Notes under the pieces: generated by a model
Seen by the model: only the letters and a program-made list of their open reading frames with translations
Told to the model about the DNA's origin: nothing
The model's database searches: none
Origin: Candidatus Saccharimonadota bacterium
GTDB lineage: Archaea > Nanobdellota > Nanobdellia > Pacearchaeales > GW2011-AR1
Assembly (NCBI GenBank): GCA_026002795.1
Contig: BPGA01000001.1
Location: 210,001 to 242,000 of the forward strand
Length of the DNA: 32,000 bases
Direction of reading: 5' to 3'
Shown here: in pieces, positions 12,188-28,665 of the stretch
Layout: each line of letters begins with the position of its first letter
Numbering within the stretch: the first letter of the stretch is position 1
Made by a program: the position numbers and the translations under genes

Positions 12188-12223
12188 TATTTTTAGATAA
12201 TTTTTATATTTAAAAATATTTGT

Positions 12224-12640: not shown

Positions 12641-12736
12641 TTTAACTTATAATTTATGGTAAATAAATATTAATAAATTTTGGTAGTTAATTATTTTAAG
12701 AGAAAGTTATATAAAATATAGCTTTATTATTTTTTT

Positions 12737-12979
12737 ATGGGATGGAAAACTTTTCTTATAATGTATTTTAAAGCAGGAAATGAAAAAGCTTCTGAGATTG
12801 TAAAGAAAGTAGAATCACTTGGATTTGAATGTACTATAGGTCCAGTAGATTTTGTTTATGACTGGCGCAATAAAGTTCCAACAAAAGAAGATATATTGGA
12901 GTTAGCCGATAAATTAGTGAAAGTTTTAGATGGAACAGGAGTTATGTTTAATATTGATACACATGAAACACCTGATTAA
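12737..12979 (+). CDS. Hypothetical small protein (80 aa)
   Basis: ATG-initiated ORF with the BRE/TATA-like GAAAGTTATATAAAA at about 12703-12717, roughly 20-34 nt upstream. I do not recognise a family. Confidence 0.5.
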   Translation: MGWKTFLIMYFKAGNEKASEIVKKVESLGFECTIGPVDFVYDWRNKVPTKEDILELADKLVKVLDGTGVMFNIDTHETPD

Positions 12980-13042
12980 TAATTTTGTTTTTATTGATCT
13001 TTGTTAGATCTCAAAAATCTTTTTCAATTTTTTATATAAATT

Positions 13043-13279
13043 TTAAAAATATCTTCTTAACAAAAACCAAATTAATAAGAAAGATATTGCTATTAAAAGC
13101 CAAATCCAAAACATTTTTTTGTTGCTAAAAAATCCGAAAGGAATTGGTCCAATAAAGCCACCAATTGCAAAGTTTGTTTTTGAGTTTCCTTTTGATAAGC
13201 TAATTAAGCTTCCAATAACTAAAAGAGATATTCCTAAAAAAATAAAGATTATTCCTATAGCAATAATTTTTTCTGACAT
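13043..13279 (-). CDS. Small two-TM membrane protein, DUF131/TIGR00304-like
   Basis: The sequence IIAIGIIFIFLGISLLVIGSL ... AIGGFIGPIPFGFFS ... WIWLLIAISFLLIWFLL has two TM helices flanking a G-x-IGPIP-x-G motif typical of the archaeal DUF131 family. I place the start at ATG 13279 rather than the TTG at 13294 used by the ORF track. Confidence 0.55.
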   Translation of the reverse strand: MSEKIIAIGIIFIFLGISLLVIGSLISLSKGNSKTNFAIGGFIGPIPFGFFSNKKMFWIWLLIAISFLLIWFLLRRYF

Positions 13280-13284
13280 TTTTT

Positions 13285-13296
13285 GGTTGGCCAACC
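13285..13296. repeat. Perfect 12-bp palindrome GGTTGGCCAACC immediately upstream of the DUF131-like gene start
   Basis: The palindrome was read directly from the sequence. It sits 5 nt upstream of ATG 13279 on the minus strand and forms the edge of a locally GC-rich patch (13285-13345) in an otherwise AT-rich intergenic context. Confidence 0.7.
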
Positions 13297-13355
13297 CTGC
13301 CGTGAATCAGAGTTGGCCTGCCATCTCTACAATTGGAGATGACTATGAAAATTTA

Positions 13356-13428
13356 AGCGCGGACCAGGATTCGAACCTGGGAATACTCGGGCTGCAGCCG
13401 AGCGCGTTAACCACTTCGCCATCCGCGC
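13356..13428 (-). tRNA. tRNA-Cys (anticodon GCA)
   Basis: The reverse complement is GCGCGGATGGCGAAGTGGTTAACGCGCTCGGCTGCAGCCCGAGTATTCCCAGGTTCGAATCCTGGTCCGCGCT. It folds as a cloverleaf with acceptor GCGCGGA/TCCGCGC, anticodon stem CTCGG/CCGAG, loop CTGCAGC, T-arm CCAGG-TTCGAAT-CCTGG and discriminator U73. No CCA is encoded. Confidence 0.9.
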
Positions 13429-13431
13429 AAG

Positions 13432-13506
13432 TGCCCCCGACAGGATTTGAACCTGCGACCTACTGCTTAGAAGGCAGTCGCTCTATCCAGGCTGAGCTAC
13501 AGGGGC
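13432..13506 (-). tRNA. tRNA-Arg (anticodon TCT)
   Basis: The reverse complement is GCCCCTGTAGCTCAGCCTGGATAGAGCGACTGCCTTCTAAGCAGTAGGTCGCAGGTTCAAATCCTGTCGGGGGCA. The anticodon stem is ACTGC/GCAGT with loop CTTCTAA. Only 3 nt (CTT) separate its 3' end from tRNA-Cys. Confidence 0.9.
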
Positions 13507-13565
13507 TTTCATTTATAAAGAAATAAGAATTTCTATTTAAAATCTTTCTATTTTTTTAGATAAGA

Positions 13566-14468
13566 TTAAATTTCTATAAGATCAAAATCTTTAGGAAGAA
13601 AAGTGTTTTTAAAAATTCTCTTTGATTCTCTTAAAATTTTTTCTGGATTTTTTGAAAATCGCTGACTTATGTGAACTAAAAAAAGTTTTTTTGATTTCGA
13701 TTTTTTGGCTATTTCTGCAGCTTCAATAGATGTTAAATGCTTGTATTCTTTTGCTTTATTCCTAAAATCTGACGAAAAAGTTGATTCGCAAATTAAAACA
13801 TCTGAATTTTTAACATAGTTAATAATTTTTTTATTAAAAGAAGTGTCCATTATGAACGAAACCTTTTTTTCGTCTTCTATATAGGTAAGTTTTTCTAGTT
13901 TGTATTTTTTTCCATCATAAAGAAGATCTTTTCCTTCTTTTAATTTTTTAAGGTGTGGGCCTTCTGGTATCTTGTATTTTTTTAGTTTTTCTTTATCTAT
14001 CTTAATTTTCTTTTTTTTAACGAAAGAGTAAGCATTACAAGGTACTGTATGAAATAGTTGATTAGCTTCAATGAAAAAATCTTCATTCTCAAAAAATTTT
14101 CCTTCAACTTCTTTAATTTCTAAAGAAATCTCATTTCTAAAACCAAATAATTTTAAAAGAATTTCAAGAGCTTTTTTTGTTTTCTTAGGACAATAAATAA
14201 AAAGTTTTTTGTTGTAGTTGCTCATCGCCAATGTTTTTAACAATCCGGGAATTCCTAAAACATGATCTGCATGCCAGTGACTTATCAAGATTTTAGTGAT
14301 TTTACACGGATTCAAATTAGCTTTTCTTAGTTGTCTTTGAGTTCCCTCTCCACAATCAACAAGAATATTTTCTCCTTTGTAACTTATTAAAAATGATGGA
14401 TGATTTCTGGTAGCAGTTGGTATAGAATCACTTGTTCCTAAAAAAAGAATTTTAATTTTTTCTGGCAT
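13566..14468 (-). CDS. rnz: Ribonuclease Z (tRNA 3' endonuclease, metallo-beta-lactamase fold)
   Basis: 300 aa. It has the N-terminal FLGTSDSIPTATRNHPSFLI, VDCGEGTQRQL and the HxHxDH motif (SHWHADHVLGIPGLL). The length and layout are typical of short-form RNase Z. Confidence 0.85.
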   Translation of the reverse strand: MPEKIKILFLGTSDSIPTATRNHPSFLISYKGENILVDCGEGTQRQLRKANLNPCKITKILISHWHADHVLGIPGLLKTLAMSNYNKKLFIYCPKKTKKALEILLKLFGFRNEISLEIKEVEGKFFENEDFFIEANQLFHTVPCNAYSFVKKKKIKIDKEKLKKYKIPEGPHLKKLKEGKDLLYDGKKYKLEKLTYIEDEKKVSFIMDTSFNKKIINYVKNSDVLICESTFSSDFRNKAKEYKHLTSIEAAEIAKKSKSKKLFLVHISQRFSKNPEKILRESKRIFKNTFLPKDFDLIEI

Positions 14469-14565
14469 AACCTAATTAGTTAGTTTCAGTTTTTATTTCT
14501 TTAGTTTTAATAAAATTATTAATGAATGTTAATTGAATTATTAATTTTAATAGATTTTAATTTGT

Positions 14566-14817
14566 TCACTCTTTTTTTAGTGATGTTGTAGCTGGTGAAA
14601 TGTAAATGATTGTATCTCCTCTTAAAAAAGTTAATCCAAGGTTTCTTTTTATTTCGCCGTTTTCTATTTCTTTTATATTGTCAAGAACTAAATTAATGTG
14701 AATATCAAAAGCTAACAAAGTTCCAACAAATTGTTTGTCTCCTTTTAAGTGAACTAGAACTTCTTTTCCTCTAGAATTGTTTAAAAGGTCTAACGGTCTG
14801 TCTATATTGTTGTTCAT
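14566..14817 (-). CDS. Sm-like (LSm/SmAP) RNA-binding protein
   Basis: 83 aa. The Sm1 motif (VLVHLKGDKQFVGTLLAFDIHINLVLDN) and Sm2 motif (FLRGDTIIYISP) are recognisable. Confidence 0.85.
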   Translation of the reverse strand: MNNNIDRPLDLLNNSRGKEVLVHLKGDKQFVGTLLAFDIHINLVLDNIKEIENGEIKRNLGLTFLRGDTIIYISPATTSLKKE

Positions 14818-14949
14818 TTTTTAATTCCAAATTATGGAATATCTTAAATAGGAATTGATAGATTATTTATAAATGTTTCTCTATTTTCTGTTGGTTGAAT
14901 TAGAATCATTTGGAAAAATATTTAAATTGTGTTTGTTGTTTCATAGAAA

Positions 14950-15321
14950 ATGAAAAAAGGAAGAAAAGTTACTGGTGGGAAATATAGAAAATCAAGGAAA
15001 AAGAAACTTTACGAATTGCCTGGACAACAAATTCTAGTGAGGTTGGGTGAAGAAAAAAGAAAAACAGTCAGGGTTACAGGAGGAAATAAAAAAACTTTTT
15101 TGGTGAAATCTAATGTTGTGAATGTTAGGGTAAACGGAAAAACAAAAAAAGTTAAGATAGAAAATGTTTTAGAAACTCCTTCTAACAGGTTTTTAGCTAG
15201 ACAAAACGTAATAACAAAAGGAGCAATCTTAAAAACAGAAATAGGAAAAGTTAAAGTAACAAACAGGCCAAGCCAAGAAGGAATGATTAATGGGGTGTTA
15301 ATAGAAGAAAGTAATTCATAA
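14950..15321 (+). CDS. rps8e: 30S ribosomal protein S8e (eS8)
   Basis: GRKVTGGKYRKSRKKKLYELPGQ ... VRVTGGNKK ... ITKGAILKTEIGKVKVTNRPSQEGMINGVLI matches the archaeal S8e pattern. Confidence 0.9.
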   Translation: MKKGRKVTGGKYRKSRKKKLYELPGQQILVRLGEEKRKTVRVTGGNKKTFLVKSNVVNVRVNGKTKKVKIENVLETPSNRFLARQNVITKGAILKTEIGKVKVTNRPSQEGMINGVLIEESNS

Positions 15322-15479
15322 AATTAAAGGACTTTGAAAAAATTTTATTAAGAAAAAGTGAACTTTAAAGTTGATGTCTGAAGTTTTAAATAAAGGGTTA
15401 ATTACCTTTCTAATGACTTTTCCAATATCTCTTGAATCTTTTTTAATAAGAAATTATTAAAATCTAAGATGCGGATCTG

Positions 15480-15529
15480 GAAAGATTTATAAAATAGAAA
15501 GATTTATAAATTATATATTTATTTATAAA
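15480..15529 (+). promoter_or_regulatory. Three tandem BRE/TATA-like boxes upstream of tfb
   Basis: GAAAGATTTATAAA occurs at 15480-15493 and again, identical, at 15497-15510. ATTTATAAA follows at 15521-15529. The tfb ATG is at 15559, so the third box sits about 30-38 nt upstream of it. Confidence 0.4.
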
Positions 15530-15558
15530 TTTTACGGTAAAACTAATTTAACTAAAAA

Positions 15559-16482
15559 ATGGTTTATGTTAAGAGATGTCCTGAGTGTGGTAGTGTAAAC
15601 TTAACTTATGATTCTCATCTTGGTGAGATTATTTGTAATGATTGTGGTCTTGTAGTTGAGGAGAAGATGGTTGATACAGGAGTAGATCTATCTGGAAAGT
15701 TTGATAAATCAGAAAAAAAAGGACGTGCTGGAGCTCCAACAAGTATTCAAAAATTTGATAGGGGATTAACAACAAATGTCGGTGAAATAGCCGATATCTA
15801 TAAATTAGATCCAAAACAATCAAGAACTTTTATAAAACTAAAGAGATGGCAAGAGAGGGTTTCTACAAGTATCGAAAGAAATTTAAGACTTGCAATGGCT
15901 GAATTAAGAAAAATTTCTTCTTACTTAAACCTTCCAAATGTAGTAAGAGATGAAGCTGCAAGAATTTATAATTATGTTTTGCAGAGGGGTTTTGTAAGAG
16001 GTAGAAGTATGGAATCTGTTGTTGCTGCTTGTTTATATGCTGCATGCAGAAGTTACAATATACCTAGAACTCTTGATGAAATGGCAACTGCTTCTGATGT
16101 GGAAAGAAAAGAGATTGGAAGAACCTACAGGTTTATAATAAGAAAACTCGGAATTAAGATAACACAAAGCTCGCCAAAAGATTACATCTCAAGATTTGCT
16201 TCTGTCTTAAAACTTTCTCCAAAAACACAAAATGATGCTTTGAAGATTTTAAAAAGAGCAGATGAAGTTGAACTTACTTCTGGAAGAGGTCCAGCAGGTA
16301 TTGCAGCAGCTGCTCTTTATGTTGCGGCATTAATGAATGATGAAAAGAAAACCCAAAGAGAGGTTGCAGATATTGCTGGTATAACAGAAGTTACAATAAG
16401 AAATAGATACAAAGAACTTATAGAAAAACTCGGACTTGAAGAAAAAATTAAAGCAAAAGAAAAAGAAATCGATAAATCTTAA
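15559..16482 (+). CDS. tfb: Transcription initiation factor IIB (TFB)
   Basis: The N-terminal zinc ribbon is CPECGS...CNDCG. Two cyclin-like repeats are visible (RSMESVVAACLYAACR... and GRGPAGIAAAALYVAAL...). The C-terminus reads QREVADIAGITEVTIRNRYKEL. Confidence 0.93.
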   Translation: MVYVKRCPECGSVNLTYDSHLGEIICNDCGLVVEEKMVDTGVDLSGKFDKSEKKGRAGAPTSIQKFDRGLTTNVGEIADIYKLDPKQSRTFIKLKRWQERVSTSIERNLRLAMAELRKISSYLNLPNVVRDEAARIYNYVLQRGFVRGRSMESVVAACLYAACRSYNIPRTLDEMATASDVERKEIGRTYRFIIRKLGIKITQSSPKDYISRFASVLKLSPKTQNDALKILKRADEVELTSGRGPAGIAAAALYVAALMNDEKKTQREVADIAGITEVTIRNRYKELIEKLGLEEKIKAKEKEIDKS

Positions 16483-16535
16483 ATTTTTATATTTTTTAAT
16501 GAGTTTTTTGTGTTTTTAGTTTTTTAATTTATTTA

Positions 16536-16619
16536 TGCGGAGACTAGGATTCGAACCTAGGCAGGCACTAAGCCACTGCGTCCTAAGCGCAGCCCGTTTG
16601 ACCACTCCGGCATCTCCGC
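16536..16619 (-). tRNA. tRNA-Leu (anticodon TAG), class II with long variable arm
   Basis: The reverse complement is GCGGAGATGCCGGAGTGGTCAAACGGGCTGCGCTTAGGACGCAGTGGCTTAGTGCCTGCCTAGGTTCGAATCCTAGTCTCCGCA. The anticodon stem is CTGCG/CGCAG with loop CTTAGGA, and the discriminator is A73. Confidence 0.9.
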
Positions 16620-16663
16620 GTTAAAAAACTTTAAAAAACAAGTAACAAATAATATAAAAAATT

Positions 16664-19600
16664 TTAGCTGCAAATATCGCTGAAAAGTGAATTTATTTTA
16701 TTTCTATTTGATTGGCTTAAAACACTCTCAACATAGTACTTAGTTGCTTCTGTACACCCCCAACCATTATAACTTCTTAATGCAGCTTTCCATCCAGTGT
16801 ATTTTGTGTTAGTGCATGTAAATACTCTACCATCTTTATTTTGATTGTAGCTGTTAATCAAGATGTCAATAGCATAATTTACGTTTTCATTAAAGTCAAG
16901 CACATTTACATTTTGATGAGCTTTTCTATTTATTTGCATAATTCCGAAACTTTCCTCACCATTTAAATTTTTTATAACTTTTTCCTCGTTGTTGTTACAG
17001 TAAAGAGGGTTGTTATTTTCTTGAAAGCCTGAAATCCCTGTTGAAGTAAACTCACCACAGTGGAAGATATTGCTTTCTATATTAGCGACCATTAGTGTAA
17101 GACATTCAAAATTTTTAACACCTGTATCTTGTAAAACTTTTTCATCTGAAATTCCTTTTTGTGTTTTAGCTTCTTGCGCTAATTTTACTATTTCATAACC
17201 CAAAACTTTTTGACATTCCTCTCTTGTCGAGCATCTAAGTTGTGGTGTTTGGCTTGTTTGCTGTTCTTGATTTGGTGTACCTGGTTTTTGTGTTGTCTCT
17301 TGTTCTGTTGATGGAACATATACCTCAATTGGTTTTTCTCTTATTCCAAGTGTAAAGATTAACTTTATTCCTTCAAAAGAATTTTTTCCGTCTAACAAAC
17401 TTTTTTCTGATGAGAAGTTATGTATAGAAAACCAAACATTGTAATTAGATTTGTTTAAGGTAGATGCAGACCATTGCCATTCGCTTCCGTTGTACCTAAA
17501 ATAAAAAGGAAATCTATAATCTCTTGGAATTCCTGGTATAAGAGATTTTAAATCTTCAATACTTATTGCATTTGTTTCTTGGTTTATTTCTAATATACCA
17601 TCAGGATTATATCTTACATTATCTGTAGAAAGCTTAGCATCTTTTTTAATTAATCCAAAACTAACTCTGTTTAGAATTCCACCTTCATCATTAGTATTTG
17701 TTCTTTGAATTAACAATGAAAGGCCAGTATTGTAAGTTGATTGTGAAAGTTTTTTTATGAACTCTTTATCTTTGTTTGAAAGTTCTGGAATTAAGACTCT
17801 TTTTGTAATGTCTTCTCCTGTTGTTTTTCCTGCAAATTCTGCTAGTTTTGAATCATACCAATTTTTTCCGTCATTACAATCTTTAACACACCAATACCAA
17901 GAATTTGTCTCTTCTGAAAAAGCATAATTGATTCCTCCTGGCTCAAACTTAAGAATAGGATACTTATCTCCTAAATTGATTTTTTTAGTGGTTAATCCAG
18001 ATATTGCTTCTGTAGTTTCTGTAGTTGATGGTCTTTCTAATTTTCCTAATTGTTTTTCTCTTTCTTGTTGTTCTCTTATTTGCTGTTCTCTTTCTTGTTG
18101 TTCTCTTATTTTTTTGTAAGCATCTAATGCAATTTCAGAAAATGAATTTCCTCTTAACAATATCAACAAGCCTTTTTCATAACTAAAGAAAACTTTGTTT
18201 ATGTTGTTGTTTATTAAAGAAATTCTTTCTTGAGGAATTTTATCAGAAATTTCTCTAAGAAGATTTCTAAAATCTTTTTCGCTTAAATAGCCTTGCTCTT
18301 TTTTCAAAATTTCTAAAGAATTTTTATTTGTCTCTTCTAAAGTTTTTTGCTCGAGATTAACTGATTTTATAGCATTTTTTACACTTTCTGAATCAAGCCA
18401 GCATTTAATTTTTGGATCAGAACAATATCCGACTTCTTTCCATCTCGCATTTTCTGTACCTACAAATGGATCAGATCCTTTTCCAGGATTATCTGTTGCA
18501 CAAATTCTAATAATTCCTCTATTGTAAATAGCTGGATCAATTGATTCTGAAACTCCTTCTTGAACATTTGGATTTAAAGTTGGATTTATTAAAGGAAAGA
18601 CATTAGGTGTTCCTGAAACACACTCTCTTTCTGTTTTAATGTTAGTTTTTGAAGCTTGAGAAGAAATATATGCTTCTGTTATGTAATTTATGCCAAAATC
18701 AGAAGTAACTTGTTTAAATCCACATTCTTCTTTTCCATTAATAATAATACACATCTCATTATAGCCAGAAGGCGCTGTAAAGTCTACTGTCCTTGTTATG
18801 TAATCTCCTGCTTTTAATGAACCTCTCGCAATTGTTCTTATTGGATTGTCTTGATAAAAAGAGCCTGGTTTTCCTCTAAGATAAACTTCATAAAATGCAG
18901 GAAAATCTTTTCCAGCATAAATATGATAGAATACTTTATATTGTGAAACTGGAGGATTTGTTGCTGTGGTGAAAGGAATTTCTTCAAATCTTCCATAAAA
19001 TTGTGGTGGTGAATCAGGAGCTGTTAACAAATCAATAAACTTTCCATCTCCTGGATAACTAAATGAAAATGCTTTTTTACAAATAGCACTTCCTACCTCT
19101 TGTGTAGAACGTGATTTGAAAGCTTTAAACGAATCCTCTGCATAATACTGTGTGAAAAATGTTACTGAATCTGAAACTTTTTGGAAAGCATCTTGCACAG
19201 AAAGATACTCTCCTCCGCCTTTTGAAGATCCACTTAAAGCAGAACCTATTGCTTGAGGAACAATATAATTTATTAAAGGAGTTGCTTGTCTCCAGCCAAA
19301 TTCACATAAATAAATAGAATATATTTCATCACATATTCCAACTGTTTTCCCTTTTTCAAGACTTTCTTCTAAACAACTTTTATAAGAATCAAGAACAGTA
19401 TTAAAAGAATCAAGTCCTGCATGAACTCCTGTAAGGCAAATTGGAATCTTAACTTCTGGGAAATTTGGAAGGCAAAGGAAAATGCTTCCAAAAATTCCTG
19501 ATTGAACAACATTTTCTACAGGATATTTTCCTCCTAAATCACATCTTGAACTTGGACATACAAAAGGATCGCAAACATTGAAAAGCAAATTACACTCTTT

Positions 19601-22600
19601 TGGAGACATAATGTCTTGACATTGAATTCCTGGTACAGATGTTGCTGGTGCTCCAACACTAACAATTTGACCGAAAACTCTAACCCTATCGACCCCCGGT
19701 TTGTATTGTTTTGAAACTTCTGCAATAGCTTGAATTGCTTGTGTTGTTTTTCTTGCTGCTTCGTCTGAACTTAATCCTGGAAACTGGTTGTATGGCTGGC
19801 CTGTTGCAAGATTTATTAATTGACAAATATCGTCTCCACCAGTGTTTTCCTCAAGACCATTGCTTCCTACATTGCATAGCCAAAAACTTGAAACTCTACC
19901 AGATTCGTCATAAGCTCTTATATTTGAAGCTATTGGTAGAGTTGATTTAATTGAAGCATACCAACCATTAACTAGATCAAAAGGAACAATTGCGGGCAAT
20001 CCTTTGTAAGGATCTCTTTCATAATACCTAACTTTAGGATTAAGATACTGGTTTTTATATTGAGAAGGATCTATTGCACTAACAACAAATCTTTCTTTTA
20101 TTCTGTTTTTTACAACGTTATCTTCAATTTTTTTGCCTGATAAAGAATAAACTTCTGAAACAATGTATTTTCCAGAAGAAATTTCTTCTAAACCCAAAAC
20201 ATATTGATTACCAAGATAAGAAACAATCATAGATGGTGTTCCTGCAGGAATATCTCCAATTGCTTGTGTTGTTTTTCCTTTGTTGTAAAATACTTCAATA
20301 GAGTTTTCAGAAGGGACAATTGTTGTTTGAAGTCCTTTCAATTCTTGAGGAAGCTTTTCTGACAATCTTGTCACCTCTAAATAATTTTTTGACTCTAACC
20401 AAACATCTGATAGTGTAGCTTCAATTTGTTTTTTTGCTCTTTCTCTAATTTCCGGATTTTCAGAGTTTAATAGCCTTGAATTAAGTTGTAATTCTTTCGC
20501 TTGTGAAATTGAAATGGTGTTTGGATTTATTGAAGAGACAATTTCTGAAATTGGGATATCTTTATTTTCTATGTTTATTGTTCCTTGTTGGAAATTTTGC
20601 TCAAGATTTTTTTGTAATTCATTTTTAAAATCATTATCTATATAGTCTTCTTTAAAGGCAGTAGTATTTATTATGTCCTCTCCTAAAAACCCGTCTTTTA
20701 TTTTATGAAGAGATTGTATTTTCTTTATTTCTTCGTTTTGAGTAGAAATTGCTTTAGAGTATTCTTCAACTTCTTTTTCTATTGTATCAGAATTCTCCAA
20801 AAGGCAACTGTCAACATTTCTATATTTTCCTAAACTAACTTCTCTTTCACAAATTTCAAACCATCCACCGCTGTCTCTCATGACTTTTTGTCTAGCAACT
20901 CCTTCACCACCTAGATTAGAAATAAAGTTTTTAAAAGTCAAAACACTGCCTGTAGCAAGACAAGCTGTTTTTCCAATTCTAACAACATCCTCAAGTTTAG
21001 AATTAATATTTTGTAGTTTGTTTATTGTATTATTTAAGCTCTCAATCTTTTCTTTAGTTTTTTCTGGGGTTAATTTTATGGCTCTTTTTTCAATTCCTAT
21101 TTTAAATGAAAATGTTGCGTTTGTTTGTGCATAATCTATTTTTGGATTTATTGAAACTTTTGCAAATTTCTTTAAATTTATTTTTTGAAGAGTGAATATG
21201 TAATTACTATCAAAAGAATCTGGAGTATTGATTACTAAAGTTTTTGTATCATCTATAAATTCCTTAATTTCTCCTTTTATTGATTTTTTAAGGTTTAATC
21301 TTACTTTAGCTGAATTTTCGTCAAGATCAAGAAGCTGAATTGTTTCTTCTGTTTCTGGATTTATTGATTTAATTTCGTTTTTTCTTAAACTTAATGTTCC
21401 AAGAACCTCTCCTGTTGTTTTATTTCTAACTAAAATTTCTGCTCCAAACTCATTAAATGTTGGGGTTATAATCCTATCTAATGAAATTCTATGGATTTTT
21501 CCGTTTATAATAACCTCTGCAACTTCTTTATCAGTATTTGCAAGGAGAGAATTATCATCACAAATTTTAGGTTTTATTGAGTTTGGAAAGGTTTCTTTAA
21601 GCCTTTCACACTCTTCAAGAGCTGTTCTTTTTTGGCCTAAAGAATTTAAAAATTCTATTTTAGCTGATAATGTTTTCTCTCCTAAAGTTGCCTCTCTAGA
21701 AGCATCATTAATATCTTTTTCATTTGAAAAGCTGTTTATAATTTCATCATAATCTTTTAAAGCATTTTTATAGCTATCTTCAAATTTTTTATCATTTAAA
21801 TAAAGATCTAAATTCTCATCCTGGGGTCCTGAAAAACCAATAAATTTTATTTTTTTTCCTCCATTTTCAACAAACTTCTCAGTAATTTCTTGAGTAGACA
21901 AAGGTTCAAAAGACTGGTCCTCTATTATGTGCCTTAAAAAATTTTCAGTTCTACTTAATCCAAACTTTAATACAGATGAAACAAGCGAACCTAAATTTTT
22001 TATTTCTCCAGGAGTATATCTTCCAAAAAATGAATTAAATGAGTCTAAATCCTGATCTGAAAGTTTTTCTGTTGATGATCTAAGAGCTGCTACAATAACC
22101 ATTAAATCTTCTTTATTTTCATTTTGATTCACATAAACAAGATAAACTGATCTACCATCATTTAATGAATAAAGTTTATCTCCTAAACTATAACTTTTAC
22201 TCTCGCCATCAATTTCAAGTTCTATTTTTGGATTTATTGACAAAATGAATGTTTTTGCTCCATCATCTTCTCTACAAGAAATTTTTACTTTTTGAACAAT
22301 CCCTTTTTTATCTAAATCTAAAATCCTACACCTGTTATCTAAAAAAGAAGCTCCTTCTTTTAATTCAAAAGAATTTCCATCTACATTTAACAAAGCTCTT
22401 TCGTCAGGGGATGTTATATCTTCTAGTTTTAAAGAAAGAGTGCCTAAACAATAATTAAAACCAGGAAGATAAATTTGATGAGATTCTTTATTTTTTTCTA
22501 AATCAAGATTTACTTTTGCTATTATTCTTTTTTCTCCAGATTTTCCAATTTTATATGCTTCTCTGTCTGAATAAACAGAAATTGTTGCGCTCTTATCGTC

Positions 22601-23284
22601 TATACTTTCAGCCCTTAGGTATCCTCTTCCATCCCAAAAAGAATATTTTACAAAATTTTGATCCCATTCTGATTGAGACATTTCAGGAAGATAAAAAACA
22701 GCTCTACCAACCCCAAAGGCATTTTCTATATCATAAGTTATTCTTGCTGTCAAATTTCCCTCAACAAAATCAGGCATTTTTGATTCGTTTGGTTGTCTTT
22801 TTAGAACAATAATAGCATATCCTAAATTGTTGAATACTGGAGAGTCTATTCTTTTTTCTGGTTTTGCAAGAGCTGCTCTAGCTGGTTGATAACCAACTCC
22901 TACAACTTCTGGAGGAACTCTTCCAGAAAGTGATATGTGTTTTATAGATTCTATTTCAATTAATGGATTTAATTGTGTTGCAACAATTGGACAAAAAACA
23001 GGAACATTTTGCTCTTCCAAAAGATCGCTTCTTACAACAGCAGGAATACAACCAGAGGGAGAAACCTGCAATAAGAAGTCCTGGCCAGCGCCACACATTT
23101 CTTTGTTAAATAATGGAAAATCTACTTTACCGAATTCTGATCTTATTGTTGGATTTTGAGTATAAGCGCTAAAGCTTCTTGCATATTGTGCTGAAAGAGT
23201 AGCTGTAAAAATTATTATAGAAAGTATGGAGACAATTAAAATAAATATTTTTTCTATAACTTTTTTCTTATTTTTGATTTTCAT
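16664..23284 (-). CDS. Giant (2206 aa) secreted protein with a C-terminal lytic transglycosylase / lysozyme-like (SLT-type) domain
   Basis: Uninterrupted 6.6-kb ORF with an N-terminal signal (IFILIVSILSIIIFTATLSAQ). The middle is long, K/E-rich and in part coiled-coil-like. A Cys-rich hydrophobic module lies at nt ~19195-19640. A Q/T/P linker precedes the last ~190 aa. That final region contains ANIES ... FGIMQI ... LDFNENVNYAIDIL ... RSYNGWG, matching the four conserved blocks of SLT domains. Confidence 0.85.
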   Translation of the reverse strand: MKIKNKKKVIEKIFILIVSILSIIIFTATLSAQYARSFSAYTQNPTIRSEFGKVDFPLFNKEMCGAGQDFLLQVSPSGCIPAVVRSDLLEEQNVPVFCPIVATQLNPLIEIESIKHISLSGRVPPEVVGVGYQPARAALAKPEKRIDSPVFNNLGYAIIVLKRQPNESKMPDFVEGNLTARITYDIENAFGVGRAVFYLPEMSQSEWDQNFVKYSFWDGRGYLRAESIDDKSATISVYSDREAYKIGKSGEKRIIAKVNLDLEKNKESHQIYLPGFNYCLGTLSLKLEDITSPDERALLNVDGNSFELKEGASFLDNRCRILDLDKKGIVQKVKISCREDDGAKTFILSINPKIELEIDGESKSYSLGDKLYSLNDGRSVYLVYVNQNENKEDLMVIVAALRSSTEKLSDQDLDSFNSFFGRYTPGEIKNLGSLVSSVLKFGLSRTENFLRHIIEDQSFEPLSTQEITEKFVENGGKKIKFIGFSGPQDENLDLYLNDKKFEDSYKNALKDYDEIINSFSNEKDINDASREATLGEKTLSAKIEFLNSLGQKRTALEECERLKETFPNSIKPKICDDNSLLANTDKEVAEVIINGKIHRISLDRIITPTFNEFGAEILVRNKTTGEVLGTLSLRKNEIKSINPETEETIQLLDLDENSAKVRLNLKKSIKGEIKEFIDDTKTLVINTPDSFDSNYIFTLQKINLKKFAKVSINPKIDYAQTNATFSFKIGIEKRAIKLTPEKTKEKIESLNNTINKLQNINSKLEDVVRIGKTACLATGSVLTFKNFISNLGGEGVARQKVMRDSGGWFEICEREVSLGKYRNVDSCLLENSDTIEKEVEEYSKAISTQNEEIKKIQSLHKIKDGFLGEDIINTTAFKEDYIDNDFKNELQKNLEQNFQQGTINIENKDIPISEIVSSINPNTISISQAKELQLNSRLLNSENPEIRERAKKQIEATLSDVWLESKNYLEVTRLSEKLPQELKGLQTTIVPSENSIEVFYNKGKTTQAIGDIPAGTPSMIVSYLGNQYVLGLEEISSGKYIVSEVYSLSGKKIEDNVVKNRIKERFVVSAIDPSQYKNQYLNPKVRYYERDPYKGLPAIVPFDLVNGWYASIKSTLPIASNIRAYDESGRVSSFWLCNVGSNGLEENTGGDDICQLINLATGQPYNQFPGLSSDEAARKTTQAIQAIAEVSKQYKPGVDRVRVFGQIVSVGAPATSVPGIQCQDIMSPKECNLLFNVCDPFVCPSSRCDLGGKYPVENVVQSGIFGSIFLCLPNFPEVKIPICLTGVHAGLDSFNTVLDSYKSCLEESLEKGKTVGICDEIYSIYLCEFGWRQATPLINYIVPQAIGSALSGSSKGGGEYLSVQDAFQKVSDSVTFFTQYYAEDSFKAFKSRSTQEVGSAICKKAFSFSYPGDGKFIDLLTAPDSPPQFYGRFEEIPFTTATNPPVSQYKVFYHIYAGKDFPAFYEVYLRGKPGSFYQDNPIRTIARGSLKAGDYITRTVDFTAPSGYNEMCIIINGKEECGFKQVTSDFGINYITEAYISSQASKTNIKTERECVSGTPNVFPLINPTLNPNVQEGVSESIDPAIYNRGIIRICATDNPGKGSDPFVGTENARWKEVGYCSDPKIKCWLDSESVKNAIKSVNLEQKTLEETNKNSLEILKKEQGYLSEKDFRNLLREISDKIPQERISLINNNINKVFFSYEKGLLILLRGNSFSEIALDAYKKIREQQEREQQIREQQEREKQLGKLERPSTTETTEAISGLTTKKINLGDKYPILKFEPGGINYAFSEETNSWYWCVKDCNDGKNWYDSKLAEFAGKTTGEDITKRVLIPELSNKDKEFIKKLSQSTYNTGLSLLIQRTNTNDEGGILNRVSFGLIKKDAKLSTDNVRYNPDGILEINQETNAISIEDLKSLIPGIPRDYRFPFYFRYNGSEWQWSASTLNKSNYNVWFSIHNFSSEKSLLDGKNSFEGIKLIFTLGIREKPIEVYVPSTEQETTQKPGTPNQEQQTSQTPQLRCSTREECQKVLGYEIVKLAQEAKTQKGISDEKVLQDTGVKNFECLTLMVANIESNIFHCGEFTSTGISGFQENNNPLYCNNNEEKVIKNLNGEESFGIMQINRKAHQNVNVLDFNENVNYAIDILINSYNQNKDGRVFTCTNTKYTGWKAALRSYNGWGCTEATKYYVESVLSQSNRNKINSLFSDICS
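18056..18110 (-). repeat. Perfect 25-nt direct repeat with 30-nt period (imperfect 15-nt sub-period x4) encoding REQQEREQQIREQQEREKQ
   Basis: The + strand sequence ttctctttcttgttgttctcttatt occurs at 18056-18080 and again at 18086-18110, with the spacer tgctg between the copies. The repeat is in frame inside the 2206-aa CDS. Confidence 0.9.
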
Positions 23285-23297
23285 TTTATGTAAATAC

Positions 23298-25145
23298 TCA
23301 TTTAAAATTTATATCTAGGTTTGTTGTATCTAATAAATCATAATTTTCTTGTAACTGTTCAAGTGATTCTGGTTCTTGGAATGATTTAACATTAATTTCA
23401 ATGCTTTTTGAATTTATTAAATCGCTTTCTAAAATATATTGTTGTGTTTTTCCTCCTCCTGAAATAACATTTGTGATTAGTTGTTCAGGTATTTGAATAT
23501 CAAAACACCTCTCTTCTTTAGCTCCAAAAACCCCAAAAATTCCTGATCTTGGAACTTCTATACATTGTTGAGATATTGTATTGCCAAATTTTAAAGAAGA
23601 GTTTTTGTAAATAATAACTTGAATTTCGTAAGATCCCTCGCTAAGATCTATGTTTTTTTGTTCTGGATAAAACAATGATAAAGAGTTTTGATCTGAAATA
23701 AAGTTAATAACTGCATTTCCTGAATATCTTCTTCCATCTAAAAGAAGCTCTATATTTTTATTGTAAAGTTTTTCCATAATTATATCTACTTTTCCAGGCA
23801 GATTTGTTGAGAGAAGATATCTTGCTGTACTGTAGCCTGGTGCTTGAGCAACAACATAACCATTAATGCATTGCGGGAAGTTTTCTTTTAAATTTCCGTT
23901 ATCGGATGTTTCTCCAATAAAGCATCTATTTGATAGACATTCATATGATATGTTTGACTTAACTGGTATTCCTTCTTCATTAATTACTCTAACTTCGACT
24001 TCTGTGTTTTTGAATTGACAAACTTCTGGAACTGGTTGTTGGAATGCTGTAATATTTTTTTCTTCTCTTGGTTTATTATTTTCTATTATTACTGCAAATG
24101 GGAACTGAAAAATCTCTTGATCTTTTTGAACTTGAACCAAAACAGGATATTTTATGTTATAGACAAAATGATATGGAACATAACAAAAACCTAGAATCCC
24201 TAATCCTGGCTGATTTCCGATTGGTGTTGAAACCATTAAATTACCTTGAGTCGGATAAACTTCTAAATTATGCGGCCAATTTTTTGAAGTTAAAAAACTA
24301 ACTTTCTCTGAAATTCCAAAATCAACTGTAAAGTATTTTTCTTGTTTATTGTTAATAGAAATTATGTTATGCTCTAAAGAGTTTTGTATATTGTCAAAAA
24401 CCTCATCTGCATTCCAAATTAAAGGACTACAACTAAGCTCAAAACCATCTACAGGAGCGTAATTTGTTAAAACATCGATTGTATAATTTTCAAGAATTTT
24501 ATTTTCTTTTAGTTGATTATAAACTTTTAAAGAAGAATCATAAAGTTGGCCTAATTTGGAATTTATGGAGGTTTTGTGATTATTTATTATTACAGACGAA
24601 TTTTCTTTTTCAATGTTGAGATTTGTATTTAGATTTAATTCAACTTTATCATCTTTAATGTTAACTTTAACACTTGAGGGCTCATCTAAAGAAATTTCAA
24701 ATCCTTGATCATTATAAGTATTAAAATTACAATTTTTTATTGAGTCTTTAATGTAGTTGGAAATTTGTTCTTCAATTTGTTTTTTTGTTGGAACCTGTTC
24801 TCTATCAAAATTATTTCCTGACACATAATACCAATAAGGTATTGGATTTCCTAAAAAGTTTAGTTGTGATGAAAATGGCATATAATCAGATCCGGGTTCA
24901 AATTCTGGTAAGTAAATATAACCTCCTTGAGTTTCTGCAATGTTTATTGCTGTTGAAAGGTCTGTTTCTAAGCAAGTTAAAAAAGAAGAATAAACTGGTT
25001 GAAACTCAACAGGAACCTCTTGAATTGATATTTTTCCTCTTAAAAATACAAAAAGAACAATTGCAGCTAAAATCAACAAAGAGATTATAATGAATATTGT
25101 AATTTGGCCTTTTTTTGACACCTCTTTTTTGTTAAAAAACCTCAT
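23298..25145 (-). CDS. 615-aa secreted protein with a class III (archaeal type IV pilin-like) signal peptide; function unknown
   Basis: The N-terminus MRFFNKKEVSKKGQITIFIIISLLILAAIVLFVFL has a basic region, then K-G-Q-I-T-I, then a hydrophobic helix, which is the prepilin-peptidase-type pattern. The stop codon lies 13 nt upstream of the 2206-aa gene start, on the same strand. A CarboxypepD_reg-like stretch (VEVRVINEEGIPVKSNISYEC) is present. Confidence 0.75.
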   Translation of the reverse strand: MRFFNKKEVSKKGQITIFIIISLLILAAIVLFVFLRGKISIQEVPVEFQPVYSSFLTCLETDLSTAINIAETQGGYIYLPEFEPGSDYMPFSSQLNFLGNPIPYWYYVSGNNFDREQVPTKKQIEEQISNYIKDSIKNCNFNTYNDQGFEISLDEPSSVKVNIKDDKVELNLNTNLNIEKENSSVIINNHKTSINSKLGQLYDSSLKVYNQLKENKILENYTIDVLTNYAPVDGFELSCSPLIWNADEVFDNIQNSLEHNIISINNKQEKYFTVDFGISEKVSFLTSKNWPHNLEVYPTQGNLMVSTPIGNQPGLGILGFCYVPYHFVYNIKYPVLVQVQKDQEIFQFPFAVIIENNKPREEKNITAFQQPVPEVCQFKNTEVEVRVINEEGIPVKSNISYECLSNRCFIGETSDNGNLKENFPQCINGYVVAQAPGYSTARYLLSTNLPGKVDIIMEKLYNKNIELLLDGRRYSGNAVINFISDQNSLSLFYPEQKNIDLSEGSYEIQVIIYKNSSLKFGNTISQQCIEVPRSGIFGVFGAKEERCFDIQIPEQLITNVISGGGKTQQYILESDLINSKSIEINVKSFQEPESLEQLQENYDLLDTTNLDINFK

Positions 25146-25163: not shown

Positions 25164-25176
25164 ATATATATAAATT
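25164..25176 (-). promoter_or_regulatory. TATA-like box for the 615-aa/2206-aa transcription unit
   Basis: The minus strand reads AAATTTATATATA about 19-31 nt upstream of the ATG at 25145, consistent with a leaderless or near-leaderless archaeal transcript. No comparable box exists in the 13-nt gap before the 2206-aa gene. Confidence 0.4.
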
Positions 25177-25188: not shown

Positions 25189-25389
25189 TTAATAATAAGA
25201 ATATCGAGTTGCTTTTAAAAAACTTATACCACCAACGATTATTAAGATTCCTCCAATAAAGATAATCCATGATTTTATAGTTTCTTTTAGTTGTGGAAGT
25301 TTGATAAAGTTTAAGGGATAGTTTAAAAAGTAAACTCCAAACAATAAGAATATTATAAATAAAATAGTTCTTGAAGAATTGCTCATCAT
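25189..25389 (-). CDS. Small two-TM membrane protein (66 aa), hypothetical
   Basis: The sequence contains ILFIIFLLFGVYFLNY and WIIFIGGILIIVGGISFL. It is on the same strand as, and directly upstream of, the 615-aa gene. It could also be a chance ORF. Confidence 0.45.
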   Translation of the reverse strand: MMSNSSRTILFIIFLLFGVYFLNYPLNFIKLPQLKETIKSWIIFIGGILIIVGGISFLKATRYSYY

Positions 25390-25455
25390 AAAAAAATTAA
25401 ACTTGGCATATATTTAAATATTTTTATTTATATTTTAGTAAAGTTTTTAAAATAG

Positions 25456-25527
25456 GCCCTGTAGTCCAATGGCTAAGACGCATCCTTGACGTGGATGAGA
25501 TCGCAGTTCGATTCTGCGCAGGGCCAT
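25456..25527 (+). tRNA. tRNA-Val (anticodon GAC)
   Basis: The sequence is GGCCCTGTAGTCCAATGGCTAAGACGCATCCTTGACGTGGATGAGATCGCAGTTCGATTCTGCGCAGGGCCA. The acceptor stem is GGCCCTG/CAGGGCC, the anticodon stem CATCC/GGATG with loop TTGACGT, and the T-arm CGCAG-TTCGATT-CTGCG. Confidence 0.9.
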
Positions 25528-25564: not shown

Positions 25565-25882
25565 ATGAAAATTCCAAAACAAGTTTCAAGATATTGTCCT
25601 TATTGCAATAAAAAAACAATTCATAAGATAAAAATAATTTCAACTGGATTTAGAAGAGGAGCTTTAACAAGAGGAAGCATAACAAGAGCAAGAAAAAGAG
25701 GTAAAGGAAGAGGAATTGGAAATAAAGGAAAATGGGGAAGTAAACCTGCTGTAAGTAAATTCAAAAGAAAAACAAAGACAAACAAAAAACCAAACATAAT
25801 GTATACTTGTGATGTGTGTGGAAAATCACACTATAGAAAAGGAAAAAGAAATAAAAGAACCGGAAAAGTACTACAAACATAA
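25565..25882 (+). CDS. rpl44e: 50S ribosomal protein L44e (eL42)
   Basis: The protein starts MKIPKQVSRYCPYCNKKTIHKI and later has CDVCGKSHYRKGKR, giving a C4 zinc ribbon. It is very basic and about 105 aa. A TATA-like CTTTAAAAA lies about 22-30 nt upstream. Confidence 0.85.
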   Translation: MKIPKQVSRYCPYCNKKTIHKIKIISTGFRRGALTRGSITRARKRGKGRGIGNKGKWGSKPAVSKFKRKTKTNKKPNIMYTCDVCGKSHYRKGKRNKRTGKVLQT

Positions 25883-25884
25883 AA

Positions 25885-26421
25885 ATGGCAGAAGCAAAAA
25901 GAAAAAGAAAGTTCATTGATGTTGAAATTCCAATAATAAAAAAAATAACACAGCTTTATGGATATGACTTAGAGGATTTAGAAAATAGGGTAATATCTTA
26001 CGACTTAACAAGAATTTTAAAAGGAAAAGGAGCTATTTTAAAACTTAAAGTTAAAATTGAGAATGGAAAAGCAACATCTTACCCAATAGAATTACAAATT
26101 TTGTTATCTTATATAAGAAGAATTATAAGAAAGGGAACTAATTATGTAGAAGACTCTTTTTCAGCAGAGTGTAAAGATTTTGTTTTAAGAATTAAACCTT
26201 TTTTAATAACAAGAAGAAAAGTTTCAAGGGCTATTAGAAAAGCTTTAAGAAATAAAGCAAGAGAATCAATTACAAATTACATTAAAGATAAAAAATCTGA
26301 AGAAATATTTAAGAAAGTTTTGAATGGAGAATTGCAGAAAACATTAATTCCTATTTTAAAGAAAATATACCCTTTATCTGTTTGTGAAATAAGAATTCTT
26401 AAAATCGAAAAAGAAAAATAA
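25885..26421 (+). CDS. rps3ae: 30S ribosomal protein S3Ae (eS1)
   Basis: 178 aa. The segments KRKFIDVEIPI ... YDLTRILKGKGAILKLKV ... LLSYIRRIIRKGTNYVED ... ILKKIYPLSVCEIRILKIE match the conserved S3Ae C-terminal KKIYPL..VEIRK block and the overall layout. Confidence 0.8.
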   Translation: MAEAKRKRKFIDVEIPIIKKITQLYGYDLEDLENRVISYDLTRILKGKGAILKLKVKIENGKATSYPIELQILLSYIRRIIRKGTNYVEDSFSAECKDFVLRIKPFLITRRKVSRAIRKALRNKARESITNYIKDKKSEEIFKKVLNGELQKTLIPILKKIYPLSVCEIRILKIEKEK

Positions 26422-27180: not shown

Positions 27181-28665
27181 CTATCTAATGTGGATTACAG
27201 GATAAATTTTTTTATAATATTTAATTGCTTCATTAAGTCTTGATTTTGTTTCTGCATAAATTGTTAAAATCTTATCGCCTTTCTTTACTTTTTCATTTAA
27301 ATGGTAATGAATAAAAACTCCAGCAAATTTATCTATTGGACAACCTGCAACTCTTGCCAGGTCGTTTATTTTTTTATTTTCTATCCTAAAGATTGTACCT
27401 GATTTTTTTGCGACAAAAGAGTGATTTATTTTAGATGGTTTTAGATTTATAACTCTTCCTCCTTGAGCTTCTATAATTTCTTTAAATTTTTTAAAAGCTT
27501 TTCCTGAATAAAGAATTTGTCTTGCTAAATTTTCTCCCCGGCCTTTTTTCGATTTTCCTGCAAGCTCTAAAATTTGACCAGCTAAAAAAATTGCTTTATC
27601 TTCCAAATCTTTAGGACCTTTTTTTTCTGGATTTAAAACATTTATTACATCAATAAGTTCAAGAACAGGCCCAACACCATTTCCAATTGGCTGATTTCCT
27701 AAAGTTAAAACACACTTTAACTTTTTTTTAAAATATTTTCCTAGAACTTCAAATTTTCTTTTTAAAGCAAGTGCTTTTTGTTTGTTTACTTTTGCGCCTT
27801 CACCATATGGAATATCTATAAGAATTATTTTACTTCCTGCAGCGATTTTTTTTGATAAAATAGAAGCTAAAAGCTGTGGTTCTGGATCTATTTTTAACAT
27901 TTTTTCTATTCTAATTATTTTTTCGTCAGCGGGAACTAAACCTAAAGAACCGCCCCAAACCATACACCCGTTTGTTTTTTTTATTATTTTTTTAATATCT
28001 TTAATTGAAAACTCAACTTTTGCTATTGTTTCAATTACATCAGCAGTACCTGCTGCACTTGTTATTGCTCTAGAAGAATTTTTTGGTATGGTAAGTCCTG
28101 CTGCTGCACATATTGAAACAACAATTGGTGTTGTCCTATTTCCTGGTATTCCACCAATAGAATGTTTATCAACAACAATCTTCTTATTTATTTTTAATGT
28201 TGAGCCTGTTTTAACTATTGAATTTATCAAATAAGTTATTTCATTTAAAGACATTCCATTTTTATAAACAGCAGTTATAAAAAGGGCTATCTCTGCTTCT
28301 GAAAGTGAATTATTAACAATATCTTCCATTATTTCATCAAGTTCTTTCTGTGTAAGTGCTTTATTATTTAATTTCTTTTTTATAAAATTAAGAGCATATG
28401 GGCTATTAGAAAGATTTACTTCAACTTTTTCATTATTTTTAAAATTTAAATAACTCTTTAACTCGTGAGAAATTCCTATCTCGTTTTTTTTGACTAAAGT
28501 TTCTGTTATATCCACAACGCTTGAAACTTCTTTAGATTTTTTATGTTTTGATTTTATTGTTATTCTATCTAAAGGATGTACTCCTATTTTTGAGGCTGTT
28601 TTAGAATTAATCATAGCGACTGGAATTCCTGCAGACCATTTTAAAAATTTAATTCTTAGTTCCAT
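27181..28665 (-). CDS. deoA: AMP phosphorylase / thymidine phosphorylase family protein (archaeal long form with N-terminal extension)
   Basis: 494 aa. The segments HSIGGIPGNRTTPIVVSICAAAGLTIPKNSSRAITSAAGTADVIE ... MVWGGSLGLVPADEKI ... IPYGEGAKV show the glycosyl-transferase family 3 fold. The additional ~80-aa N-terminal domain is characteristic of archaeal AMP phosphorylases. Confidence 0.8.
   Translation of the reverse strand: MELRIKFLKWSAGIPVAMINSKTASKIGVHPLDRITIKSKHKKSKEVSSVVDITETLVKKNEIGISHELKSYLNFKNNEKVEVNLSNSPYALNFIKKKLNNKALTQKELDEIMEDIVNNSLSEAEIALFITAVYKNGMSLNEITYLINSIVKTGSTLKINKKIVVDKHSIGGIPGNRTTPIVVSICAAAGLTIPKNSSRAITSAAGTADVIETIAKVEFSIKDIKKIIKKTNGCMVWGGSLGLVPADEKIIRIEKMLKIDPEPQLLASILSKKIAAGSKIILIDIPYGEGAKVNKQKALALKRKFEVLGKYFKKKLKCVLTLGNQPIGNGVGPVLELIDVINVLNPEKKGPKDLEDKAIFLAGQILELAGKSKKGRGENLARQILYSGKAFKKFKEIIEAQGGRVINLKPSKINHSFVAKKSGTIFRIENKKINDLARVAGCPIDKFAGVFIHYHLNEKVKKGDKILTIYAETKSRLNEAIKYYKKIYPVIHIR

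Follow-up and report, generated by a model that had tools for sequence, protein, structure and literature searches.

A conserved gene pair of Pacearchaeota and Woesearchaeota encoding a class III signal protein and a secreted giant with a predicted lysozyme-like head

The stretch of Candidatus Pacearchaeota DNA analysed here, 32,000 nucleotides (nt) in length and referred to as the window, carries on its minus strand two adjoining genes, one for a 615-amino-acid (aa) protein with a class III (prepilin-type) signal (the partner) and one for a 2206-aa secreted protein (the giant) whose C-terminus is, as judged from its sequence, a divergent GH23 lysozyme-like domain with a predicted activity. 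The two products are identical to KatS3mg001_249 and KatS3mg001_248, respectively, of a Candidatus Pacearchaeota metagenome-assembled genome (MAG; 535-kb contig). The window has a G+C content of about 30% and archaeal gene content; TFB/TFIIB (15559-16482) and ribosomal proteins S8e, S3Ae, L44e, L3 and L4 are also encoded in it, and because TFB/TFIIB and archaeal ribosomal protein genes lie close by, the source organism is an archaeon, as the original prediction for this DNA had held. That prediction had also described two open reading frames (ORFs) on one strand, 13 nt apart; their coordinates are exact and the two-gene observation is confirmed, and the first interpretation placed on it is partly supported. 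The features of the two genes are as follows.

23298-25145, minus strand: ORF of the 615-aa partner protein (KatS3mg001_249)
25107-25145, minus strand: class III (prepilin-type) signal leader of the partner, aa 1-13, predicted cleavage between G13 and Q14
25038-25106, minus strand: hydrophobic N-terminal helix of the mature partner, aa 14-36, a putative membrane anchor or pilin-like alpha1 helix
23285-23297, minus strand: 13-nt spacer between the partner and giant genes, in place of which relatives commonly have a 4-nt ATGA overlap
16664-23284, minus strand: ORF of the 2206-aa secreted giant (KatS3mg001_248)
23189-23284, minus strand: Sec signal peptide of the giant, aa 1-32, predicted cleavage S-A/Q33
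18125-23188, minus strand: conserved core of the giant, aa 33-1720, with no known domain, an identity of about 40-50% among relatives and 32 Cys, the majority (near-)invariant
18365-19987, minus strand: best-conserved Cys-rich part of the core, aa 1100-1640, with the motif CDPxVCPSSRCDLGG
17270-17962, minus strand: optional "mid" module, aa 1775-2005, in which a Trp-rich motif (..W.W......W) is duplicated, with E/Q/T/P-rich linkers on either side
16667-17233, minus strand: divergent GH23 (goose-lysozyme/SLT-like) domain, aa 2018-2206, assigned by profiles, AlphaFold2 (AF2) model and motifs
17075-17077, minus strand: codon of Glu2070, invariant as the Glu of an E-S motif and, on the model of GH23 enzymes, the candidate catalytic acid

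The unit is as widespread in Pacearchaeota and Woesearchaeota as a housekeeping gene. The partner has >1675 homologues (50-57% identity, full length), matches 3032 clusters (50% identity clustering, E<=1e-3) and is encoded in 467 GTDB species representatives labelled Pacearchaeota, Woesearchaeota or Nanoarchaeota; the giant family comprises >756 matches, with a conserved core corresponding to query residues 1-1720. The pair is conserved as neighbours in relatives, as had been anticipated: the giant lies downstream of the partner on the same strand in all 79 related loci that include downstream sequence, with a gap of <400 nt in 75 of them and a 4-nt overlap (ATGA) in 32 of those 75. On account of this arrangement, co-transcription of the partner and giant genes, another element of the original prediction, is very likely, and the overlaps suggest that the pair is often translationally coupled as well. 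The arrangement extends to distant relatives: at a Woesearchaeota locus (L082), a 634-aa partner about 29% identical to the 615-aa protein overlaps by 4 nt the gene of a 2505-aa giant (11902-19419) that shares the Cys-rich core. At the same locus a 62-aa MarR-like winged-helix gene (9832-10020) overlaps the start of the 634-aa partner, to which it is seemingly fused in another relative (P0345).

The second product had been credited with a classical signal peptide, and giants across the family do have Sec-type signals, with a conserved ...[VI]SA/xY[AT]R site (the slash marking cleavage). The signal is the lone hydrophobic segment of the window giant (a single hydrophobic 19-mer region, aa 7-35), so the mature giant would be soluble and secreted, without an anchor. 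Its 40 Cys, most of them (near-)invariant in the family, indicate that the core is probably disulfide-rich. The description of the bulk of the giant as unrecognisable holds: Pfam, NCBIfam and PHROGs searches of the whole giant and Pfam searches of six tiles yielded nothing in the core, and the giant family profile matched nothing meaningful in the PDB. Core aa 1221-1635 are about 33% identical to the Woesearchaeota L082 giant (449 aligned positions, E=8e-72). Seven relatives have insertions of 90-120 aa near query residue 645 (P0034, P0048, P0051, P0055, P0069, P0082 and P0108), which is an internal insertion hot-spot of the core; a second GH23-type domain occupies this position in the giant of locus L075. 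The mid module (aa 1775-2005) has no Pfam match; 51 of 154 relatives carry it, and its occurrence does not depend on the GH23 head; a protein database search with it returned no match, not even the giant itself, and is treated as uninformative.

The C-terminal head has no significant direct match in Pfam: with the C-terminal 189 aa alone, SLT scores 11.4 bits against a cut-off of 21.3 (E=0.24) and SLT_3 13.5 bits (E=0.1), and a single-sequence PDB search with the C-terminus gave nothing significant. Profiles built from the family reach further. The head domain is common to 63 of 119 family members, and in an alignment of 46 head domains E60 (Glu2070) and Y162-N163-G164 are invariant, while S61 and G104-x-M-Q-I-N are invariant or nearly so; E-S, GxMQIN and YNG are the motifs of family-1 SLT/GEWL domains. 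Seven of the 46 reach Pfam SLT at E<=0.01, and the only PDB matches of the head family profile are goose-type lysozymes (E=0.026-0.33). The head hidden Markov model matches the tails of four other giants (L012, L015, L063 and L057) at 1e-15 to 1e-18, in regions overlapped by Pfam SLT matches of 29-52 bits (cut-off 21.3), and hhalign aligns the head with canonical SLT tails from within the giant family at a probability of 90% (E=1.5e-6). The AF2 model of the head is very confident (predicted local distance difference test, pLDDT, 96.4; predicted template-modelling score, pTM, 0.92), and its first 30 Foldseek matches in the PDB (probability up to 0.99) comprise GH23 lysozymes, lytic transglycosylases and a pair of fungal muramidases, including g-type lysozymes, MltE, MltF, LtgA, Slt70, phiKZ gp144 and SltB2. 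The best structural and profile matches, goose-type lysozyme (153L, 3GXK) and the family-1 lytic transglycosylases MltE, Slt70 and MltF, have E-S, G-x-M-Q and Y-N-G in common with the head, which differs from these GH23 enzymes by its 11-16% identity, template-modelling (TM) scores of 0.40-0.46, eight Cys of its own and fusion to an archaeal giant. Because the TM scores are only 0.40-0.46 and Foldseek E is about 1e-2, the head is placed as a divergent member of GH23. Thus, the SLT/lysozyme-like C-terminus of the original prediction is upheld by deeper profiles, structure, motifs and transitive homology to Pfam-positive tails, whereas the PF01464 search that had been proposed as its check gives so weak a match (E=0.24) that, taken literally, it comes close to contradicting the domain. 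The sequence of the head is compatible with either a muramidase, acting by lysozyme-like hydrolysis, or a lytic transglycosylase, leaving 1,6-anhydro ends.

Behind the conserved core, the tails vary. Among 154 distinct giants, 82 have a GH23 domain of the query type, which is followed by further sequence in 18; counting canonical SLT, a GH23-type domain is found in 92 of the 154 and in 29 of 51 complete species representatives. Pfam identifies among 50 complete tails SLT (12), VanY/Peptidase_M15_4 (2), Amidase_2 (1), glucosaminidase (GH73; 1), NlpC/P60 (1) and SLT_2 (1), as well as DUF1615, CAP and PT-HINT, the last in one of the 50 and absent from the window giant. Unalignable tails follow core ends that are 84% (L028/L052), 80% (L003/L005) and 79% (L036/L043) identical. 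The position of the head also varies: the SLT domain of the L082 giant (Pfam, aa 392-446) lies in its N-terminal fifth, and the L075 giant has GH23-type domains at aa 639-797 and, at the C-terminus, aa 2196-2373. These comparisons argue that the tails are exchangeable cassettes. A recurrent alternative head ending in ...HPVYFYKNP, seen in the last ~170 aa of the L003 tail and in P0015, P0016, P0023 and P0032, has a Cys...GDW...H-A-V-I-F pattern reminiscent of cysteine peptidases of the NlpC/P60 or CHAP type; the one weak match to NlpC/P60 in Pfam (E=4.4e-4) may correspond to this head.

Between them, the enzyme families of the tails account for cleavage of glycan, amide and peptide bonds in bacterial murein. 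The D-Ala-D-Ala bond on which VanY acts and the MurNAc-L-Ala bond on which Amidase_2 acts do not occur in pseudomurein; therefore, bacterial walls are favoured as the target. The proposal that the giant acts on the wall of another organism is the best reading of the repertoire, since SLT, glucosaminidase, Amidase_2, VanY/M15 and NlpC/P60 domains, whose substrates are bonds particular to bacterial murein, share a position across relatives.

The type IV pilin-like (class III) signal ascribed to the partner is confirmed. The N-terminus reads MRFFNKKEVSKKG up to the predicted cleavage site and QITIFIIISLLILAAIVLFVFL beyond it (context KKG/QITIFIIISLLILAAIVLFVFL), that is, K-K-G/Q-I-T-I-F followed by 22 hydrophobic residues, and no other ORF of the window has such a signal. 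The FlaFind class III pattern is fitted by 88 of 120 partner homologues; the misfits among 60 inspected N-termini deviate at position -2 alone and keep G-Q, with leaders of variable length. G/Q-[VI]-T-[IV]-F-I-I-I is retained in all homologue N-termini inspected, and Woesearchaeota relatives at 28-33% identity retain M-K-[KQ]-G-Q. At one related locus (L004) a 272-aa ORF (18693-19511) directly after the giant has a signal of the partner type, RGQVTIFIIIA, and no Pfam match. Pfam, NCBIfam and PHROGs searches of the whole 615-aa protein gave no match, and the partner family profile matched nothing meaningful in the PDB. An AF2 model from a 70-sequence alignment (pLDDT 73.6, pTM 0.49) consists of a helix (aa 12-36), a linker (aa 35-42, pLDDT<50), a conserved alpha/beta body and tandem beta-sandwich (CnaB/carboxypeptidase-regulatory-like) domains that begin near aa 378 and run to aa 615. 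Foldseek searches with the model (PDB, BFVD) gave generic tandem beta-sandwich matches only (TM<=0.19), which point to no specific function: Bacillus anthracis TIE, ancillary pilins of Gram-positive bacteria, SlaB, a teneurin carboxypeptidase-like domain and phage fibre proteins. The most economical reading is that the partner is a membrane-anchored stalk that would retain the anchorless giant.

Conservation of the surroundings bears on how the unit is inherited. Its immediate flanks in the window are as follows.

14950-16482, plus strand: S8e-TFB, one flank of the unit
16536-16619, minus strand: tRNA-Leu, directly after the giant gene and followed by TFB
25455-25526, plus strand: tRNA-Val, on the other side of the two-gene region
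25565-26421, plus strand: L44e-S3Ae, the other flank of the unit

L44e-S3Ae is conserved beside the unit in 61-65 of 81 loci and TFB-S8e in 38-43 of 81. In the same genomes, identity to the window proteins is 87% for TFB, 60% for S3Ae, 51% for the partner and 43% for the core of the giant. No relatives of the unit were found among IMG/VR viral contigs. The conserved flanks, an identity near that of S3Ae and the lack of IMG/VR relatives indicate a vertically inherited core trait rather than an island or provirus; a viral or proviral origin is rejected on the same grounds, the absence of IMG/VR relatives and the conserved housekeeping neighbourhood. A bacterial origin might be suggested by two contigs labelled "Patescibacteria" (L021, JAHYJW010000006.1) and "Bacillota" (L005, DATKUW010000047.1), but both carry archaeal genes, the unit lying beside TFB, S8e, S3Ae and L44e; because of TFB and the archaeal ribosomal proteins, the labels are wrong, and these are archaeal contigs of mislabelled or mis-binned MAGs.

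Upstream of the partner lies a small gene that the original prediction had overlooked, with a TATA-like box of its own.

25189-25389, minus strand: 66-aa protein with two hydrophobic helices, 43 nt upstream of the 615-aa gene
25167-25174, minus strand: TATA-like box TTTATATA, at -29..-22 from the ATG of the 615-aa gene
25411-25418, minus strand: TATA-like box TTTAAATA, at -29..-22 from the ATG of the 66-aa ORF

In 55 related loci the partner gene is preceded, on its own strand, by a homologue of the 66-aa gene; a Pfam scan of the protein gave no match. The lone TATA-like box claimed upstream of the first gene is, with the strict consensus TTTAWATA, the sole minus-strand match within 16.4-25.2 kb (25167-25174), and none lies inside the 615-aa or giant genes, but a second box (25411-25418) precedes the 66-aa ORF. 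The box at 25167-25174 is likely to be the promoter of the 615-aa/giant transcription unit, the mRNA of which would probably be leaderless or have a short leader. A box before the 615-aa gene and none inside the two long genes fits a single transcript for the partner and giant and a separate start for the 66-aa gene; this evidence is suggestive, since TTTAWATA occurs in the window about as often as expected by chance (18 found versus 17 expected). Because of its own TATA-like box, the 66-aa gene is regarded as a neighbour and not as an established member of the unit. A scan for sigma-70 promoters and terminators, which returned no more sites than chance would give, was set aside as inapplicable to an archaeon.

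Published work (PMC8204110, PMC9723730, PMC10936187, PMC11537232) already describes giant "murein-like lytic transglycosylase" proteins from Pacearchaeota and Woesearchaeota and proposes that bacterial hosts are their target; the family is fam00969 of Castelle 2021, also treated by Vigneron 2022, and PMC8204110 cites Rinke 2013 and Castelle 2015 as earlier reports of giants. The window giant fits the published description (Pacearchaeota/Woesearchaeota, ~2000-3000 aa, secreted, SLT/GH23 domain; PMC8204110), sharing lineages, size (up to ~3000 aa), extracellular location, GH23/SLT domain and proposed bacterial wall binding or degradation, and its homologues are named "transglycosylase SLT domain-containing protein". 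The statement that no characterised system has this architecture is therefore literally true, but giant murein-lytic proteins and their targeting of bacterial hosts are already in those four papers. The window locus is one more instance of a published, uncharacterised giant family, and the descriptive additions made here apply family-wide. Neither a coupled class III signal partner, the 66-aa gene, cassette exchange nor Pfam-escaping heads were found in PMC8204110, PMC9723730, PMC10936187 or PMC11537232; bacterial-wall targeting by giants is thus not new, whereas the strictly coupled partner, the cassette exchange and the conserved core are absent from the literature searched. Unlike in published accounts, the conserved feature here is the 1720-aa core with its coupled partner, and the hydrolase is an exchangeable cassette. 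The published giants were recognized from Pfam and CAZy and described as a patchy trait, whereas the head of the window giant escapes Pfam; its invisibility shows that the reported patchiness is partly a detection artefact and that Pfam/CAZy surveys undercount the trait.

The interpretation that we favour, and consider on balance somewhat probable, is that the anchored 615-aa stalk and the secreted giant form a surface complex presenting swappable murein hydrolases to bacterial cells. The 615-aa protein would be exported, its class III signal cut between G13 and Q14 by a prepilin-type peptidase, and held in the membrane by its 22-residue hydrophobic helix, and its conserved N-terminal body and beta-sandwich stalk would hold the giant. 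The giant would be exported via Sec, cleaved after A32, remain without an anchor of its own and fold into a probably disulfide-rich core bearing exchangeable enzyme heads on flexible E/Q/T/P-rich linkers. The GH23 head of the window giant, with Glu2070 as the acid, would cleave glycan strands in the murein of a neighbouring bacterium, which would either open the wall for contact or free muropeptides as food.

Several points weigh against this interpretation. The C-terminus of the giant does not reach the PF01464 gathering score and the whole-protein scan gave no match; the likeness of the head to known structures is modest, by the TM and Foldseek values given above, as is the confidence of the AF2 model of the partner. 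A GH23 domain is lacking from about 40% of giants, and many tails could be assigned to no family, so the conserved 1720-aa core must do more than carry a hydrolase. Enzymatic activity, localisation and the partner-giant interaction are things that we infer, and a bacterial host has not been demonstrated for any Pacearchaeote (PMC11537232).

A more far-reaching form of the interpretation, which is possible but doubtful, is that the 66-aa membrane protein, the stalk with the class III signal and the giant make up a lineage-defining "wall-breaching organelle" of Pacearchaeota and Woesearchaeota, in which the Cys-rich core would be a new contact or conduit machine and the heads would set which bacteria are parasitised. 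If this were true, one of the largest uncultured radiations of archaea would have bacteria, not archaea, as its hosts. To our knowledge, no host is known for Pacearchaeota or Woesearchaeota and none has been cultured; the unit offers a handle on whom these archaea live on and how they breach the wall, in the form of an assayable domain and a surface marker, and cassette types could be correlated with co-occurring bacteria.

The original prediction had suggested assembly of the 615-aa protein by pilus machinery, which in its fullest form would make it a minor or tip pilin of a type-IV-pilus-like fibre that carries the giant to the wall of a host. The invariance of the class III signal across the partner family, the resemblance of the hydrophobic N-terminal helix of the mature protein to pilin alpha1, the Foldseek matches to Gram-positive ancillary and tip pilins, whose beta-sandwich stalks are similar, and the further ORF bearing this signal that immediately follows the giant at L004 would all fit such a fibre. 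However, known archaeal pilins are several times smaller than 615 aa, and the multi-domain partner does not have the architecture of a pilin, a small protein with a long alpha1 helix on a single globular domain: in the AF2 model its helix ends in a low-confidence, proline-containing linker and does not run on into the globular domain. Genes for a pilus assembly ATPase, platform or peptidase are found neither in the window nor beside the unit in L001 or L082, the window encodes no prepilin peptidase (PibD/FlaK/EppA), and none of its other ORFs has a class III signal. A class III signal is by itself not proof of pilus assembly. Non-pilin archaeal surface proteins, such as Sulfolobus sugar-binding proteins, also bear it; the type IV pilins, the archaellins and these bindosome proteins alike have [KR]-G/Q followed by ~20 hydrophobic residues, as the partner does, and the partner differs from this group in its 615-aa length, its multi-domain body and the lack of assembly genes nearby. 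By analogy, use of the signal in the manner of the bindosome appears at least as good a model as a pilin. Pilus assembly of the partner is not borne out by this evidence, and the pilus-tip apparatus is improbable.

To a similar degree unlikely is a two-component scaffold in the manner of the S-layer proteins SlaB and SlaA of Sulfolobales, in which the stalk and a "canopy" of giant would form an outer coat and the hydrolase heads would be accessory. The unit is near-universal, apparently single-copy and set among housekeeping genes, and the gene of an anchored stalk stands beside that of a large, anchorless secreted protein, as in slaA/slaB, where an anchored beta-sandwich stalk is likewise encoded adjacent to its large partner. 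SlaB (8qox_B) is Foldseek match no. 4 of the partner (E ~1e-5), but the likeness is a generic, local beta-sandwich (TM 0.13); no sequence homology is apparent, the giant is Cys-rich with enzyme heads, and the anchor of the partner is an N-terminal class III helix whereas that of SlaB is a C-terminal transmembrane helix. Conservation near that of S3Ae (51% and 43% versus 60%) and 40 mostly invariant Cys are atypical of S-layer proteins, and heads swapped between close relatives suit an interaction device better than a lattice. Such a scaffold and the surface complex that we favour are compatible and mutually non-exclusive.

The giant could instead be released into the medium as a polymorphic antibacterial or foraging lysin, with the 615-aa protein acting only as a helper in export or maturation, which we hold to be rather unlikely. 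The giant has no anchor, peptidoglycan scavenging by Pacearchaeota has been proposed (PMC11537232), and the polymorphic tails, with pretoxin-HINT (PT-HINT) in one relative, recall the polymorphic toxins. The bacterial polymorphic toxin systems (Rhs, CdiA and MAF types), reportedly described by Zhang, Aravind and colleagues in 2012, resemble the giants in having a large, conserved, secreted body and C-terminal domains swapped between close relatives. Unlike them, however, the giants have no YD, FHA or other known repeats and carry wall hydrolases in place of nucleases and deaminases, and the giant locus has no immunity-like gene or orphan cassette, tRNA-Leu and then TFB following the giant gene; the producing archaeon also lacks the target polymer. 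A 1720-aa core with a strictly coupled, anchored partner would moreover be costly for a diffusible enzyme in a genome that consists mainly of one 535-kb contig. Remodelling by the archaeon of a murein-like or pseudomurein polymer of its own is highly improbable, as it has in its favour the glycan-cleaving fold and nothing further, and against it the lack of wall-synthesis genes in the window, the fact that neither murein nor pseudomurein synthesis is known from DPANN archaea, the action of VanY and Amidase_2 heads on bonds that pseudomurein lacks, and the description in PMC8204110 of these enzymes as "normally absent in Archaea".

Elsewhere in the window, a second giant of 3198 aa (387-9983, plus strand) has MG2 (alpha-2-macroglobulin) and NPCBM_assoc domains and an N-terminal signal-anchor; it is followed by a 150-aa membrane ORF (10008-10460, plus strand) and a 572-aa ORF with a hydrophobic N-terminus (10469-12187, minus strand). 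Kinship of the 3198-aa giant with the 2206-aa giant, or of the 572-aa protein with the 615-aa partner, is rejected, as BLAST of the 3198-aa, 150-aa and 572-aa proteins shows no similarity to the 2206-aa or 615-aa proteins. A 135-aa ORF with a TTG start (13119-13526, plus strand) overlaps tRNA-Cys and tRNA-Arg (13356-13506, minus strand; 2 nt apart) and is almost certainly not a gene. A 494-aa protein (27181-28665, minus strand) has Glycos_trans_3N, Glycos_transf_3 and PYNP_C domains and resembles AMP phosphorylase; a protein of this type would fit the nucleotide-salvage metabolism described for Pacearchaeota in PMC8204110.

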